Positions 25,342 through 45,872 of a stretch of DNA of 64,000 nucleotides are shown here, piece by piece. The DNA lies in the sequence record NC_004928.1. One strand, given 5' to 3'. Source of the stretch: Escherichia phage RB69. Made by a program: the position numbers and the translations under genes. Each line of letters opens with the position of its first letter. Positions within the stretch are counted from its first letter, which is position 1. The notes under the pieces were generated by a model. That model was not told where the DNA came from and made no database searches. It worked only from the letters and a program-made list of their open reading frames with translations.

Positions 25342-25636
25342 TTAAAGTTTCAACAAAATTCACCAAATCATTCAGACAAGCATCAACCTGATTTTCATAA
25401 AAGTCTTCGTTATCATTTACTGCATGATAAGCTACATCATTCAAATCTGATTCGGCCTCACGTAAGTGAGGGATAAGTTCCATCAATTTATTAGCTTGTT
25501 CACGGGTCATTTTACCATACTCGCTTCAATAAGATTAATTACACCATTTACCATGTTATACGTAAACATCGGATAATTGTATTGTACTATAACATAAGCG
25601 ATAAGCAAAAGTTTCATTTTGTTCTCCATTTGTTTT

Positions 25637-32921: not shown

Positions 32922-33218
32922 CTATTTTTCTGAAGCGCCTGAAATATATTTTTCAAGACGTTGTTTCATTAGCGAGCCGTTCTTAGCGATTTCTTCCGGT
33001 TTATCGCACATACGCAACAAGGCTTCAAGCTTAACGATATCACTGGTGCGCTCAAATTTGCGAGTATCTATCTTGCTAGCAAGTTCAGAAATACGTGCTA
33101 ATAGACTTTCAGCTTCAACCAAAGCTGCACCTAGCTTCGTGGCAAATGTGTCAGTAGCTTCGTTAAGAGATAGATTCTGATAAAAATTCATGTATGTTTT
33201 CATATATACGCTTTCCAA
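32922..33218 (-). CDS. hypothetical protein
   Basis: 98-aa ORF between e and denV. Confidence 0.4.
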
Positions 33219-36942: not shown

Positions 36943-37194
36943 TTAAATTTCACGACATGCGATATCATATTCATCCCAGAGGTCATCGTGTGAAGCCTCT
37001 ACCAATGGAACGATTGTGCCGTTTATGTCTTCATTATAAGGGCAAATTGTACAGTGCGCATCTTCGAATCGGATGCCTTTGTGTTCAGATTTTTTATAAC
37101 GCATATCGAATATCTTTGCAAACTTTTCACGAGTAATGGTTTTAGCAACCACTTTGGTTCCGATACTTTCGTAATAAATCATTGTGGACTCCAT
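36943..37194 (-). CDS. hypothetical protein
   Basis: 83-aa ORF with CxxC..H motif. Confidence 0.45.
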   Translation of the reverse strand: MESTMIYYESIGTKVVAKTITREKFAKIFDMRYKKSEHKGIRFEDAHCTICPYNEDINGTIVPLVEASHDDLWDEYDIACREI

Positions 37195-41200: not shown

Positions 41201-41390
41201 GTTTTTTCTGTATCGGTAGTTGATAGTTGTATAGTACCACGGAAGAACAGGGATGTAAACAGTTTTGTGAAAAAAATTTTTAAAAAGTTTTGTGGAATTC
41301 TAGGGCAGGGAGAGGAAATTAAAAGGTAGGATAATATATTATAAAGGGTATAAACTAAATGATGCCTAGAGAGGCCCGGAAAGGCCTAGA

Positions 41391-41420
41391 TACAAAAAAG
41401 CCCTATCATTTAGATAGGGA
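41391..41420 (-). terminator. rho-independent terminator (CCCUAUC..GAUAGGG then U6)
   Basis: hairpin followed by CTTTTTTGT on minus strand immediately after ORF ending at 41428. Confidence 0.55.
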
Positions 41421-41549
41421 TTTAAAATTATTTACCTAGTTTAGTTATTATAGCTTCGGCAGCAGCTTTTAGCTTAGATGCAGTGTTAATACGATTTTTA
41501 ATTTCGGTATACGCATCGCCAAGAACATCAAGGCTATCAGAATAAACAC

Positions 41550-41990
41550 TTACACTATTGCGTTCGCTATTTTGAATAGAACCTTTAGTTTTACGATCAA
41601 AATCAGTGTACACGTCTTGAAGACACGGGCTGCCTTCTTTGCATCATCCAATGCATCAAGAGCTTTATTCAAAGCATTGACATATTTTTTAGTGTCAAAC
41701 ATATTCTTAGAAATTTTAACAGGTGCACGTTCAGGAGTAGCTAAGGCGGATTTAGGAACCTGCGTGCCAGATGCCAGTTTCTTAGAAATTTTGAAAAACG
41801 CTTTATTGAAACTATTTTCTTGACTCATCGTAAAAGAACTAGTATCGATGTTATACATTTCAATAGCTTTAGCTTTCCACTTAAGAAAATCGCCACGGTC
41901 TTTTGGATCCAAGTGGAAGAATACTTTAGTAAGATCTGCTTCAGATGGTAATTTTGCTGCTTCGGTTAAAAATTCGGCATAGGTTTTCAT
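41550..41990 (-). CDS. internal-protein-like protein with capsid targeting sequence; 3' end uncertain
   Basis: N-terminus MKTYAEFLTEA; a second frame (41428..41613) stays open to the terminator. Confidence 0.5.
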   Translation of the reverse strand: MKTYAEFLTEAAKLPSEADLTKVFFHLDPKDRGDFLKWKAKAIEMYNIDTSSFTMSQENSFNKAFFKISKKLASGTQVPKSALATPERAPVKISKNMFDTKKYVNALNKALDALDDAKKAARVFKTCTLILIVKLKVLFKIANAIV

Positions 41991-42080
41991 TTAAAATCCT
42001 TGAAATAATTTATCGGTTGGTTATTAATTATTTATTACTTTGTTATTATCAGTAACAGCATTCTCTGAGTGATTCAAACT

Positions 42081-42108
42081 AAAAAGCCCCAACCTTTCGG
42101 AAGGGGCT
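42081..42108 (-). terminator. rho-independent terminator, identical copy of 26135..26163
   Basis: GCCCCTTCCGAAAGGTTGGGGC then T5 on minus strand. Confidence 0.55.
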
Positions 42109-42159
42109 AAGCCTCGCGGCAACCTTGTCGGGGTTCCACCTGCTAAGGCAAGTGTTTGT

Positions 42160-42262
42160 ACGAAACGCCGGGATTCGAACCCGGTTATTAAGCAGTTGAC
42201 GCTACTCAATATTTTTAAAAGGCCATATCTCGACCATATCCGAACGTTCCGTCAAAAACGCT
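42160..42262 (-). ncRNA. tRNA-like structured RNA (canonical T-arm CCGGG-UUCGAAU-CCCGG with paired acceptor-like stem)
   Basis: GGTTCGAATCC T-arm motif on minus strand; about 90 nt between acceptor-like strands; does not fold into a standard cloverleaf by eye. Confidence 0.3.
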
Positions 42263-42419
42263 ACTCGACTTACGGCAAAGATATTTCCTCGAATCGATAA
42301 TTCGGTGCGCCGTTTCTGCTGTGATGTAAGGGGATATTAACGAATCATAAAGATTTATTAAGACCAGTCCTTACTCAGGGAACATCAGTCCGACGACTTA
42401 CCGGTAGCGACCCGGCTTC

Positions 42420-42764
42420 TTATTTTGACATATTATCAATTTGCTCTCGACGCCGTCGCCATAGATTAATCGCTTCATTAACACATTCGGCGTTTGGTAT
42501 ATGACGGCAATAATATAATGATTCGCGTTTCTGGAACCGATGTTGCAATGGGATTTCGTTTAAAAGGTCTTTACGGTCAAAGTATTCAAAACTAGTTAAC
42601 CCGGAACGGTTTTTAAGAAACTTCCAATGTCCGAATTCATTTTGAAAATAAACATAATCAGCATGTTGATATAATGAATTAATTAACCTATCGGAAATAA
42701 CTGTTTCACGTTCGTTAAAATAAAATGTTAAATCATGAACTACTAAGTAAACATTGCCTTTCAT
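42420..42764 (-). CDS. hypothetical protein embedded between tRNA-like genes
   Basis: Track ORF 42420..42812 trimmed to MKGNVYLVV with SD GAGGAAAA; positionally analogous to segB in the T4 tRNA cluster but no endonuclease motif recognised. Confidence 0.45.
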   Translation of the reverse strand: MKGNVYLVVHDLTFYFNERETVISDRLINSLYQHADYVYFQNEFGHWKFLKNRSGLTSFEYFDRKDLLNEIPLQHRFQKRESLYYCRHIPNAECVNEAINLWRRRREQIDNMSK

Positions 42765-42782
42765 ATTTTCCTCACTTAAAGT

Positions 42783-42861
42783 TGGTCGAGACAGAAGGAT
42801 TCTAACCTTCAACCTACGGATTAGAAGTCCCCGTTGCTCTATACAATTGAGCTATGCCTCG
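42783..42861 (-). tRNA. tRNA-like gene, Arg(UCU)-like anticodon context with non-canonical loop
   Basis: 7-bp acceptor stem, D-stem GCUC/GAGC, T-arm GAAGG-UUAGAAU-CCUUC, encoded CCA; anticodon arm only folds with a 9-nt loop. Confidence 0.4.
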
Positions 42862-42867
42862 AATATA

Positions 42868-42941
42868 TGACCCAGACCAGATTCGAACTGGTAACCTTTC
42901 CCTTATGAGGGGACTGCTGCTAACCGTTGAGCTACAGGGCC
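42868..42941 (-). tRNA. tRNA-like gene, CAU anticodon context (Met/Ile), imperfect D-arm
   Basis: T-arm ACCAG-UUCGAAU-CUGGU, acceptor stem with one U-U mismatch, loop CUCAUAA. Confidence 0.35.
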
Positions 42942-43020
42942 TAAATAACTTTCTATTATGAAAGGCACTTTAGAGTACCTTTGGTAATAGAGGGTATGAA
43001 TTAATAATAACACATAATTC

Positions 43021-43536
43021 TTAAAGCAAATCAATCATTTTAACAGTTGGCAAAACGATTTCTTCTTCAATATAAGCAAATTCAACACATTCAACTACAC
43101 GCAAGAAATCATAATCATAATATTCAGAAGCATGACCAAGAATACCAATGAGACCTTCTGATACCAAATATCCATTCTCACGAAACAGGTCGAATACACA
43201 CGATTCGTCTTCTTCAGATTTATTACCAAGGTCGACTTCAATATCAAAGACCTTTTTAATGAATTCTGGATAAAGCTGGTCTGAGAACAGTCCTTCAACC
43301 AAGTATTCATAGATTAAAAGCGAGCAATCACTGAATGGTGTATTACCGCAATAACGTTCGGCTTTGGTGCTAGAATGACGGCTCTTAAATTTCTTCAAGA
43401 GATATTTAAACTGTTGGAGCTCATGCTCTTCCACTTCAAACAATGTTTTGGTTTTATAGTTGTCACCATCATTTTCATAGGTAGTGACATCAATTACGTA
43501 ACCCTTAGGAATTGTACTGCCTAAACAAATATTCAT
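43021..43536 (-). CDS. hypothetical protein
   Basis: 171-aa acidic ORF. Confidence 0.5.
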   Translation of the reverse strand: MNICLGSTIPKGYVIDVTTYENDGDNYKTKTLFEVEEHELQQFKYLLKKFKSRHSSTKAERYCGNTPFSDCSLLIYEYLVEGLFSDQLYPEFIKKVFDIEVDLGNKSEEDESCVFDLFRENGYLVSEGLIGILGHASEYYDYDFLRVVECVEFAYIEEEIVLPTVKMIDLL

Positions 43537-43540
43537 TTAC

Positions 43541-43831
43541 TCACCGTACCATATTAATGTAATTATATTCAATGCAACGTAATTTCAAAGGATTCTTGAA
43601 AATATCATATTCAAGAGGGCCTTTTTCTGTTTCAATAAAGAAATCAAAGTTAACTGTGTTAAATTTATCGTCTTCACAGAGTAATTTAACTTGCGAAGAC
43701 GAACGGTCGATATAAACCTTTTCAACCTCAAAGTTAGTCAGAATACCATAGTCATTAACTAGTGCTTTAGCTGCACGTTGGTCGCTTTCATATCCGTTCT
43801 CAATGGACGATACTTTAGCATAAAGAATCAT
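43541..43831 (-). CDS. hypothetical protein
   Basis: 96-aa ORF. Confidence 0.45.
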   Translation of the reverse strand: MILYAKVSSIENGYESDQRAAKALVNDYGILTNFEVEKVYIDRSSSQVKLLCEDDKFNTVNFDFFIETEKGPLEYDIFKNPLKLRCIEYNYINMVR

Positions 43832-44190
43832 GAATGTTCCACCACTTCAAAGGTATGAGCATCAACAATATGATACCAGTCAAAATTTTCTTCTGCGTTT
43901 TTATAAATTTCGCGAAGAGCTTCAACAGTTTTTCCTGTAGCAACAAGATCGTCAATACCGCCAAGAGGATAACAGTCGTAACCAGCAAACAGAAGGAAAT
44001 TAATAGTTTCTGTAGGTTCTGGATGCAGTGTACCATTGTCATCGACTACTTCAAAGAACATATAACCAGGCGATTTAGATTTAATCCAAGCCCATGCTTG
44101 AGCTGCTGAATCAAATGGTTTGCGTATCAAACGACAATCAGGGTCTTTAGAAGGATTTGCTTCAAAATCCGCATATACGTGATATTTCAT
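43828..44190 (-). CDS. hypothetical protein
   Basis: Track ORF 43828..44223 trimmed to MKYHVYADF. Confidence 0.45.
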   Translation of the reverse strand: MKYHVYADFEANPSKDPDCRLIRKPFDSAAQAWAWIKSKSPGYMFFEVVDDNGTLHPEPTETINFLLFAGYDCYPLGGIDDLVATGKTVEALREIYKNAEENFDWYHIVDAHTFEVVEHS

Positions 44191-44191
44191 T

Positions 44192-44398
44192 TTACTCACC
44201 TTTTGCAATTTTATCCATAACAATAGCGATTAAACCGATTAGAAATGCTACTACCAATGAGATAGAGTTTTCAGTTGTTGTCAGTAGTCCACAAATGAAT
44301 CCTACAAACATCGAAAAACTAAAAGCCATTGAAGCAATTACTACAGCAACATTACGAATCAGTTCAGCGCGTTTCATTTTATTTCTCCATTTACTCAT
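44192..44398 (-). CDS. small membrane protein
   Basis: 68 aa, two hydrophobic helices. Confidence 0.45.
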   Translation of the reverse strand: MSKWRNKMKRAELIRNVAVVIASMAFSFSMFVGFICGLLTTTENSISLVVAFLIGLIAIVMDKIAKGE

Positions 44399-44405
44399 TT
44401 TGTTT

Positions 44406-44445
44406 TGATAGGACTACTATAACATAGTCTTATCAGCATGTAAAC
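44406..44445 (-). promoter_or_regulatory. early promoter cassette (canonical family)
   Basis: GTTTACATGCTGATAAGACTATGTTATAGTAGTCCTATCA. Confidence 0.5.
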
Positions 44446-44448
44446 TAC

Positions 44449-44736
44449 TTACAGAAGAGTTTTTGCAATAATTTTAAGCTGAGCTACAGAAATATGCTTA
44501 GCTTTAAACAGTGCAGTCTCTTCAGCCGGAGAGATAACAATAGTAGCGCCATCTTTCTTAGCAGACCATCCATCCCCTAAGTAAACAGTACCTTTTACTT
44601 CTTCGCCGTCAACCAGACTAATCATTGGTTTACCCTCACGTCCTTTATTTGCTTTAATAACTTCGGAAGTAAGGGTTGCTTCGGTCAGAGTAGAAACGTT
44701 AGCAACAGGTGATATAAATTCTTTATAGGTTTTCAT
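44449..44736 (-). CDS. internal-protein-like protein with capsid targeting sequence
   Basis: MKTYKEFISP leader; start trimmed. Confidence 0.55.
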   Translation of the reverse strand: MKTYKEFISPVANVSTLTEATLTSEVIKANKGREGKPMISLVDGEEVKGTVYLGDGWSAKKDGATIVISPAEETALFKAKHISVAQLKIIAKTLL

Positions 44737-44758
44737 TTTAGGTTCCATTTTGTTGTTT

Positions 44759-44798
44759 TGATAGGACTACTATAACATAGTCCTATCGTGTTGTAAAA
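44759..44798 (-). promoter_or_regulatory. early promoter cassette (canonical family)
   Basis: TAGGACTA-tgttatag-TAGTCCTA with -35 TTTTACA. Confidence 0.5.
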
Positions 44799-45109
44799 TA
44801 TTTTATGCCTTTAGATGAAATAGTATTCTGGCGTTTGACCCCTGTTTGTGAAAAATCATGGTTATCAATTTGGTCAACTCGCATAACACCAAATGCAGAT
44901 TTAATTTTAGCCTTTGAACCTTTTTTGATACTAATTACCATATAAGTATCATTTTTCTTATATTCGAAATTTGTTACTTCAACGCCTTGATTAGAAATTG
45001 ACTTAATAATAGCATTAGCGTATTCATCATCTAACGGACCGTTAGTGTTAATAACAAAATTTTTATCTGCTTTAGTAGCTTCCGCGATGAATTCTTGATA
45101 GGTTTTCAT
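44783..45109 (-). CDS. internal-protein-like protein with capsid targeting sequence (ipI position)
   Basis: MKTYQEFIAEA leader; located directly before 57B as ipI is in T4. Confidence 0.55.
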   Translation of the reverse strand: MKTYQEFIAEATKADKNFVINTNGPLDDEYANAIIKSISNQGVEVTNFEYKKNDTYMVISIKKGSKAKIKSAFGVMRVDQIDNHDFSQTGVKRQNTISSKGIKYFTTR

Positions 45110-45133
45110 TTTATTTCCTTGAGGTTGTTTATT

Positions 45134-45173
45134 TGATAGGATGATAGTAACACACCATCATCCTTATGTAAAC
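45134..45173 (-). promoter_or_regulatory. early promoter cassette (AGGATGAT..ATCATCCT palindrome variant)
   Basis: GTTTACA ... TATCATCCTATCAAA. Confidence 0.45.
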
Positions 45174-45186
45174 TGTTTTGTGAAAA

Positions 45187-45872
<686 letters not shown>

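Follow-up and report, generated by a model that had tools for sequence, protein, structure and literature searches.

In phage T4, the internal proteins (IPs) are made with a leader that targets them to the prohead core; the prohead protease gp21 cuts the leader off, and on injection the mature product accompanies the DNA. Ip1, Ip2, and Ip3 are inhibitors of GmrSD type IV restriction enzymes, each of a different one (Silas 2025), and the IPI of phage RB69, which differs from T4 IPI at four residues, prevents GmrSD restriction (Thomas et al. 2018, PMC6024577). At its ipI locus, phage Bas37 encodes a protein with a capsid-targeting sequence (CTS), Bas37_0260, that inhibits McrBC. Mutagenesis has assigned leader residues 4 and 7 to capsid targeting and residues 8 and 10 to processing (PMC9026906). 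IP genes were described as absent outside two known loci (Arbiol 2010), one between 57B and trna.4 and the other at e/denV. Here, we compare with these systems three open reading frames (ORFs), 41550..41990, 44449..44736, and 44783..45109, that begin with CTS-type leaders in a 64,000-nucleotide stretch of the RB69 genome (record NC_004928.1; hereafter, the window). All of the genes discussed are on the minus strand, and coordinates are window positions.

Of the three ORFs, two are ordinary genes of the T-even IP system, one an ortholog of ipI and the other an additional Ip7-type gene. We consider it highly probable that the locus is best explained by IP system genes and promoter/stem-loop (PeSL) cassettes that are shuffled between 57B and trna.4, with the third ORF, part of the frameshifted RB69ORF149c family gene (ORF149c), as a third candidate IP. 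Most of this is already known, in that the literature describes the locus, its leaders, and the cassettes that shuffle its genes, and two of the three genes are annotated IP genes. Only ORF149c and the site between rnaC and e.8, with its MKSY family, may be under-described as candidate IPs. Homologies, leaders, cassettes, and exchange breakpoints were determined directly, and CTS function and IPI activity are taken from the literature.

The three ORFs lie where a first-pass annotation had placed them, with the N-termini that it had read (MKTYAEFLTEA, MKTYKEFISP, and MKTYQEFIAEA), and a protein look-up returned exact matches to RB69ORF149c (NP_861839.1), RB69 IpI, and RB69ORF156c (NP_861846.1). 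A leader position-specific scoring matrix (PSSM) was built from the first ten residues of nine annotated IPs from other phages (T4 IPI, IPII, and IPIII; T2 Ip5 and Ip7; PST IpIII to IpVI) and was used to score the 562 Met-initiated ORF candidates of at least 50 aa in the window. Six ORFs (45109, 32119, 31778, 44736, 32443, and 41990) scored 19.4–33.6 bits, the three under study (45109, 44736, and 41990) reaching 33.6, 22.6, and 19.4 bits; outside these six, the next-best candidate stood at 3.7 bits over a background of −22.6 ± 7.9. The count of six leader genes given by the first-pass annotation was therefore upheld by a matrix built from external IP leaders. That the leaders belong to chance ORFs is ruled out by this separation together with the homologies described below.

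The residues mapped by mutagenesis are also in place, with Y4 and F7 in all three leaders and (I/L)8 and E10 in two of them; IpI uses a second LTE site. Together with PSSM scores far above the background, these residues indicate that each ORF carries a leader of the capsid-targeting type. Every precursor contains a single (L/I)xE motif, which lies at the end of the leader and is followed by Ala. The predicted cleavage sites are IAE/A in the Ip7-like protein, LTE/A at residue 19 of IpI, and LTE/A in ORF149c, and the mature N-termini are predicted to be ATKADK, ATLTSEVIK, and AAKLPSEADLTK (AAKLPSEADL...), respectively. The mature proteins would be small (from the smallest to the largest, 8.0, 11.0, and 19.6 kDa, the intact form being taken for ORF149c; pI 9.02, 9.62, and 9.48) and basic, with predicted pI values of 9.0–9.9 compared with 9.0–9.7 for T4 IPI*, IPII*, and IPIII*. 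Their bodies matched IPI, Ip7, and a near-orphan family, and not the structural proteins that had been named beforehand as the relatives that would speak against packaging. From the leader, the cleavage site, and the charge, and for the Ip7-like protein also the locus, we infer that the Ip7-like and ORF149c products are packaged and have an anti-restriction role.

The leader criterion overlooked a seventh probable IP gene, 32922..33203, between the lysozyme gene e and denV. Its leader is degenerate (PSSM −1.7) and is followed by A, and its body is 49% identical to T2 Ip5.

The middle ORF, 44449..44736, is the true ipI ortholog. It encodes 95 aa, with the leader MKTYKEFISPVANVSTLTE followed by A and a mature IPI* of 76 aa. 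The match to Pfam IPI_T4 (PF11634) is full-length (domain positions 1–76 of 76, ORF residues 20–95, E = 1.3e-50), and the sequence of the solved IPI* structure, PDB 2JUB_A, is matched at 5.8e-42. The protein shares 88% of its residues with T4 IPI, and four of the differing positions fall in the mature part. Its product inhibits the GmrSD type IV restriction enzyme, and this mechanism of RB69 IpI is documented in the literature (PMC6024577). The first-pass annotation had pointed to the last ORF, 44783..45109, as lying directly before Acb1/57B, where T4 has ipI; the position beside 57B stands, but the ortholog is the middle ORF.

In RefSeq, RB69 IpI is annotated with 99 aa (MEPKMKTY...) instead of 95 aa because of an upstream in-frame ATG inside the promoter cassette. 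Several cassettes contain such an ATG (ATGGAG/ATGGAA, in reality part of the Shine–Dalgarno (SD) region), which precedes the true start by a few codons, namely at 44737..44748, 25615..25629, 37183..37194, and 44378..44398.

The ORF at 44783..45109 (RB69ORF156c, 108 aa; leader MKTYQEFIAE/A) is an additional Ip7-type IP gene inserted between 57B/Acb1 and ipI. It matches phrog_2667, an 'internal head protein' family, at 8e-39 and T2 Ip7 at 1.7e-41 (BLASTP), and it is 66–68% identical to the annotated Ip7 of T2, RB32, and CC31 over 95–98% of the mature region (E ~1e-24). Its homologs are named 'Ip7 protein' or 'internal head protein' in database sources, and its leader is identical to the targeting sequence of T4 IPII/IPIII. 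The neighboring 57B gene (45187..45642), encoding the anti-CBASS nuclease Acb1, was correctly recognized at the outset (Pfam Acb1, 7.4e-59); it occupies the position of T4 57B and forms the conserved left flank of the IP locus. At the same site, T2 has the order 57B-ip5-ip7-trna.4, and GenBank Z35082 (RB15: ip5, ip9, and ip7) is a small deposited record of the 57B–trna.4 IP locus. Pfam and NCBIfam gave no match for the Ip7-like protein. Its AlphaFold model (pLDDT 64) has a ferredoxin/ACT-like core with no PDB match at E < 0.01, and no function was drawn from it. By analogy with T4 Ip1–3, the target of the Ip7-like protein is most likely another modification-dependent nuclease.

Compared with phiE142 and other relatives, the stop codon of the Ip7-like gene is changed from TAG to TAT at 44799..44797, which adds five residues (YFTTR). 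With this extension (44783..44799), the ORF runs into the −35 region of the promoter cassette that follows and ends there. The 108-aa form is unique to the RB69 reference among ~15 billion proteins, the other cluster members being 103 aa long.

Three minus-strand promoters of the form TTTACA-17-TA(C/T)(T/A)(A/G)T, with a TG extension, lie at 45172, 44797, and 44444. Cassette A (45110..45180), before the Ip7-like gene, has the −35 element TTTACA at 45172..45167 and the −10 element TACTAT at 45149..45144, followed by a ribosome-binding site (RBS). Its hairpin arms are AGGATGAT (45164..45157) and ATCATCCT (45145..45138), with an RNA fold of −15.4 kcal/mol (z −4.2). In cassette B (44737..44803), before ipI, the −35 TTTACA (44797..44792) still belongs to the 3′ end of the Ip7-like ORF, the −10 TATAGT is at 44774..44769, and the arms are GATAGGACTA (44787..44778) and TAGTCCTATC (44769..44760), with a fold of −15.4 kcal/mol (z −5.4). 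Cassette C (44378..44450), with the −35 element at 44444..44439, the −10 TATAGT at 44421..44416, and an imperfect hairpin, precedes a gene without a leader, the trna.4 homolog at 44377. In the cassettes, the inverted repeat spans the spacer and the −10 element. The PeSL consensus of the T4/PST pair is TTTACW-N17-TAYWAT with the stem AGNA-loop-TCNT, then an SD and an ATG (Comeau 2014); the RB69 cassettes have this architecture and are generic T-even early PeSL elements.

Is the palindrome promoter, then, a mark of the leader genes? The first-pass annotation had placed each of the three genes behind its own. This was borne out for the genes starting at 45109 and 44736 but not for the one starting at 41990, before which there is only a terminator hairpin (42108..42081) and no promoter match. 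As a mark of leader genes, the element fails, since seven of the nine cassette copies in the window precede unrelated small ORFs. The 20-mer TGTTATAGTAGTCCTATCAA occurs in five exact copies, and in eight when up to three mismatches are allowed, all on the minus strand of the window, where none would be expected by chance. Altogether, nine PeSL-type cassettes lie on the minus strand between 21630 and 45172, five of them with an identical 20-nt core. Near-identical short repeats across the RB69 early region could allow recombination far outside the IP loci.

A 5-kb stretch containing the locus is 96–97% identical to the Mosigvirus genomes phiC120, phiE142, ChristianSchoenbein, and PhAPEC2, and alignments with phiC120, phiE142, T4, and T2 make the proposed cassette-wise exchange of IP genes visible. 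In RB69, the order is 57B / cassette A / Ip7-like / cassette B / ipI / cassette C / trna.4. In phiC120 and ChristianSchoenbein, it is 57B / A / ipI / C / trna.4, so that cassette A directly precedes ipI; a single 373-nt period, made up of the Ip7 body and one cassette, is lacking, with the junction falling within shared RBS/leader sequence. In phiE142, the A-Ip7-B part is kept, and an unrelated leader-bearing body replaces ipI. The identity of phiE142 to the window is 93–100% up to the leader (~44725), 26–57% through the body, and again 83–100% from cassette C (~44445), which thus forms the right-hand boundary of the exchange. Elsewhere, the same locus holds ipI alone (T4), ip5 and ip7 (T2), or ipV and ipVI (PST). 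Comparison with the IP repertoires of related phages, the check proposed by the first-pass annotation, reveals clean cassette gain, loss, and replacement across phiC120, phiE142, T4, and T2. The proposal that all three genes are exchange cassettes with promoters applies to the two genes at 57B–trna.4, whereas the boundaries of ORF149c are terminator hairpins. The same pattern was described for the IP loci by Repoila et al. 1994, as cited by Arbiol 2010 and Comeau 2014, and the latter two generalized it as PeSL-mediated shuffling.

Could the palindromes primarily be regulatory or termination elements, such as an early operator or a hairpin that ends or stabilizes transcripts, and their association with indels a by-product of their intergenic position? 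The hairpin overlaps the −10 element and so would form only in upstream read-through RNA or in DNA, the same 20-mer precedes seven unrelated early genes, and the motifs have been called composite promoter–terminators (Comeau 2014). On the other hand, no T run follows the cassette hairpins, and the exchange breakpoints fell at a cassette or a leader in every comparison made. Arbiol 2010, as cited in Comeau 2014, demonstrated the formation of PeSL mini-circles that delete the DNA between two tandem PeSLs. Regulatory and recombination roles are not mutually exclusive, and we regard a primarily regulatory or termination role as doubtful.

The third ORF, 41550..41990, which the first-pass annotation had listed among the leader genes, is not an intact gene but the frameshifted 5′ part of a longer one. 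The RB69ORF149c family gene spans 41428..41990 and is split into the leader-bearing ORF (leader MKTYAEFLTE/A; 146 aa) and an overlapping 3′ remnant, 41428..41613, with phrog_2280 positions 1–121 in the first frame and 121–178 in the second. Relatives encode 187 aa; in RB69, one A is missing at 41624/41623 (GTGATC to GTGTC), and the 5′ ORF consequently consists of 127 native codons and 19 out-of-frame codons. The extra base is present in 163 of 163 related phage records, none of which shares the deletion, and the 146-aa product was found on one contig only in the look-up of ~15 billion proteins. The AlphaFold model of ORF149c (pLDDT 68) begins with a small helical domain, continues through a disordered linker, and ends in a long helical hairpin; if the model holds, the frameshift would destroy this hairpin. 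A BFVD search with the all-alpha model returned only the protein's own family, and no function was drawn from it.

The frameshift is private to the RB69 reference and reflects either a mutation in this strain or a mistake in sequencing. Could both this deletion and the stop-codon change of the Ip7-like gene be errors in the reference, the genes really being as in the relatives? Both variants occur on a single contig among the ~15 billion proteins, the other cluster members being 187 aa and 103 aa long, and the ORF149c deletion is found in none of the related records. However, the deleted base lies outside any homopolymer run, and no independent resequencing of RB69 is apparent in the protein collection, so that uniqueness would be expected either way. 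We take errors in the reference to be a serious possibility, with somewhat less than an even chance. In any case, the frameshift is relevant to anyone using RB69 to study ORF149c.

Across Mosigvirus and Tequatrovirus, the ORF149c family is at least 95% identical (163 records) and keeps its leader. It is nearly an orphan, with one distant relative (31% identity) in 1.8 billion cluster representatives; this relative keeps a leader, MITFNEFLNE/S, and lies on a contig that is short and uninformative. ORF149c had no Pfam or NCBIfam match, as was likewise the case for the MKSY protein and the leader proteins of the first cluster in the window, and BLASTP of the leader-protein bodies against T4 IPII and IPIII gave no significant similarity for ORF149c.

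In relatives, an extra basic gene of 154 aa (MKSYAEFLTE/Q...) lies between rnaC and ORF149c and is missing from RB69. Two copies of the terminator GGTTGGGGCTTTTT enclose this gene (the stretch is 2431..3400 of L001 and 2491..3466 of L002, the sequences of two close relatives), whereas RB69 has a single hybrid copy, which fits a deletion or insertion through the repeat. The MKSY family was found in 512 phage records, and all 25 of the sampled rows were 'hypothetical', 'Phage protein', or unannotated. For Yersinia phage fD1, a permissive LC-MS/MS data set counts the MKSY homolog g140 and the IpI homolog g146 among the particle-associated proteins. As proof of packaging, the fD1 proteome was rejected as too permissive, since it lists 137 of 277 gene products, including dNMP kinase. 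The families at rnaC–e.8 are basic, helical proteins with CTS-type leaders, and we only tentatively suggest that this gap is a third, so far unannotated T-even IP locus, with the ORF149c and MKSY families as terminator-bounded cassettes. If true, it would hold new injected effectors, presumably anti-defense, and would revise the picture given by Arbiol 2010.

Several observations weigh against an IP system of the extent proposed here, and most of them concern ORF149c. The genes at 44449..44736 and 44783..45109 lie within a recognized IP locus, whereas 41428..41990, between rnaC and e.8, lies outside both 57B–trna.4 and e/denV; therefore, the claim of IP membership was lowered for ORF149c only. 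In the published record of PST, likewise, named IP genes are confined to the two classical loci, and ORF149c is absent. The family is annotated as 'hypothetical' in 163 of 163 records, and the gene is frameshifted in RB69. No early or canonical late promoter was detectable for ORF149c, the only promoter-like match upstream of 41990 being AATAAATA (7/8), whose first base varies among relatives. The structure models of the Ip7-like protein and ORF149c are of moderate quality (pLDDT 64 and 68) and had no functional match, no RB69 virion proteome or N-terminal mapping was found in the literature, and, judged by sequence, the cassette hairpins may serve as recombination substrates, terminators, or regulators.

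As a promoter upstream of both 41990 and the MKSY gene, AATAAATA was rejected because its first base is not conserved. The late promoter TATAAATA was not found near any of the three genes.

These observations bear on whether ORF149c is packaged at all. Its IP-like 5′ end might have been acquired with recombining RBS–leader DNA, the gene now being a decaying pseudogene in RB69. The position outside both classical loci without a PeSL cassette, the uniform 'hypothetical' annotation, and the frameshift would all fit such an origin, and the leader region is similar to that of the Ip7-like gene at the DNA level (62 nt, 71%), as expected of a transferred 5′ end. However, the leader, the LTE/A site, and the body are conserved in the 163 phages, and the retention of a leader in the 31%-identical homolog argues for selection on it. 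Moreover, the mature part is basic, like known IPs, and the neighboring MKSY family has the same leader type at the same site, with its fD1 homolog detected in virion preparations, albeit in the permissive data set. We therefore consider an unpackaged ORF149c unlikely and retain it as a candidate IP.

The surrounding tRNA-like region reported by the first-pass annotation is real and comprises two tRNAs together with homologs of rnaD and rnaC, which are stable RNAs of T4. The tRNAs, a tRNA-Arg(TCT) and one with a CAT anticodon, lie at 42783..42941 (ARAGORN; Rfam tRNA scores of 57 and 52 bits). The CAT-anticodon tRNA (42868..42941) is called tRNA-Met by ARAGORN and tRNA-Ile (AUA, lysidine type) in the ChristianSchoenbein annotation, and T4 has a tRNA-Ile in the equivalent cluster. 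The rnaD (~42423..42304) and rnaC (~42297..42159) regions share long identical blocks with the annotated T4 genes. An Rfam scan of 41300..45300 returned only the two tRNAs; rnaC and rnaD have no family there, and weak plastid and snoRNA matches were noise. Between the tRNAs and rnaD lies an ORF of 114 aa (42420..42764; phrog_3355, function unassigned), the stop codon of which abuts the rnaD homolog; the corresponding place in T4 holds tRNA-Arg and segB. The G+C-rich hairpin with a T run at 42108..42081 (−17.2 kcal/mol) is an intrinsic terminator that ends the tRNA/rnaC unit, and a second intrinsic terminator follows the ORF149c gene at 41419..41401 (RNA fold z −4.1).

If the T4 mechanism applies, the N-terminal CTS of ~10 residues would carry the precursor into the prohead scaffolding core, and gp21 would cut behind the (L/I)xE with which the leader ends. 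The mature protein, which is basic, would then stay in the head with the DNA, be injected at the next infection, and block a host defense nuclease. Between phages, the cassettes at the 57B–trna.4 locus and the conserved RBS and leader DNA would act as short homologies through which whole IP genes are inserted, deleted, or replaced. Of a phage's weapons, the IPs reach the cell first, and the IP repertoire helps set the host range; more than 30 IP variants have reportedly been counted. Such repertoires are of importance in phage therapy and in the search for new restriction inhibitors, and ORF149c and the MKSY family, as candidates, look like unrecognized packaged proteins at a third site.

How closely do the RB69 genes resemble their described counterparts? 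Like T4 IPI, RB69 IpI has 95 aa, a 19-residue leader ending in (L/I)TE/A, and a locus between 57B and trna.4. It differs in the start of the leader (MKTYKEFISP... compared with MKTFKEFTST... in T4) and in the extra IP gene that intervenes between 57B and ipI. The Ip7-like gene shares its leader type and the 57B–trna.4 locus with the Ip7 genes of T2, RB32, RB15, and CC31. Unlike those, it adjoins 57B and not trna.4, is paired with ipI and not ip5, and has the five-residue C-terminal extension.

Compared with T4 IPII and IPIII, the CTS is identical in the Ip7-like protein and closely similar in ORF149c, and all of these proteins are basic and cleaved, the cleavage being predicted for RB69. Their bodies, on the other hand, are not homologous to IPII or IPIII, and ORF149c lies at another locus. 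T4 ipII and ipIII are preceded by an early promoter that has GTTTAC and a −10 element covered by a palindrome, as in the RB69 cassettes, whereas ORF149c does not have such a promoter. Finally, the RB69 cassettes resemble the described PeSL elements, including those termed 'PeSL-like' at the IP loci (Repoila 1994; Arbiol 2010; Comeau 2014), in combining a promoter, a stem, and an SD with a start codon, in clustering in variable regions, and in lying at the boundaries of indels and replacements. They depart from them in that, at two of the four boundaries in the RB69 comparisons, the crossover lies in RBS/leader DNA and not in the stem-loop, and in that the repeated element at the rnaC–e.8 site is a terminator hairpin.

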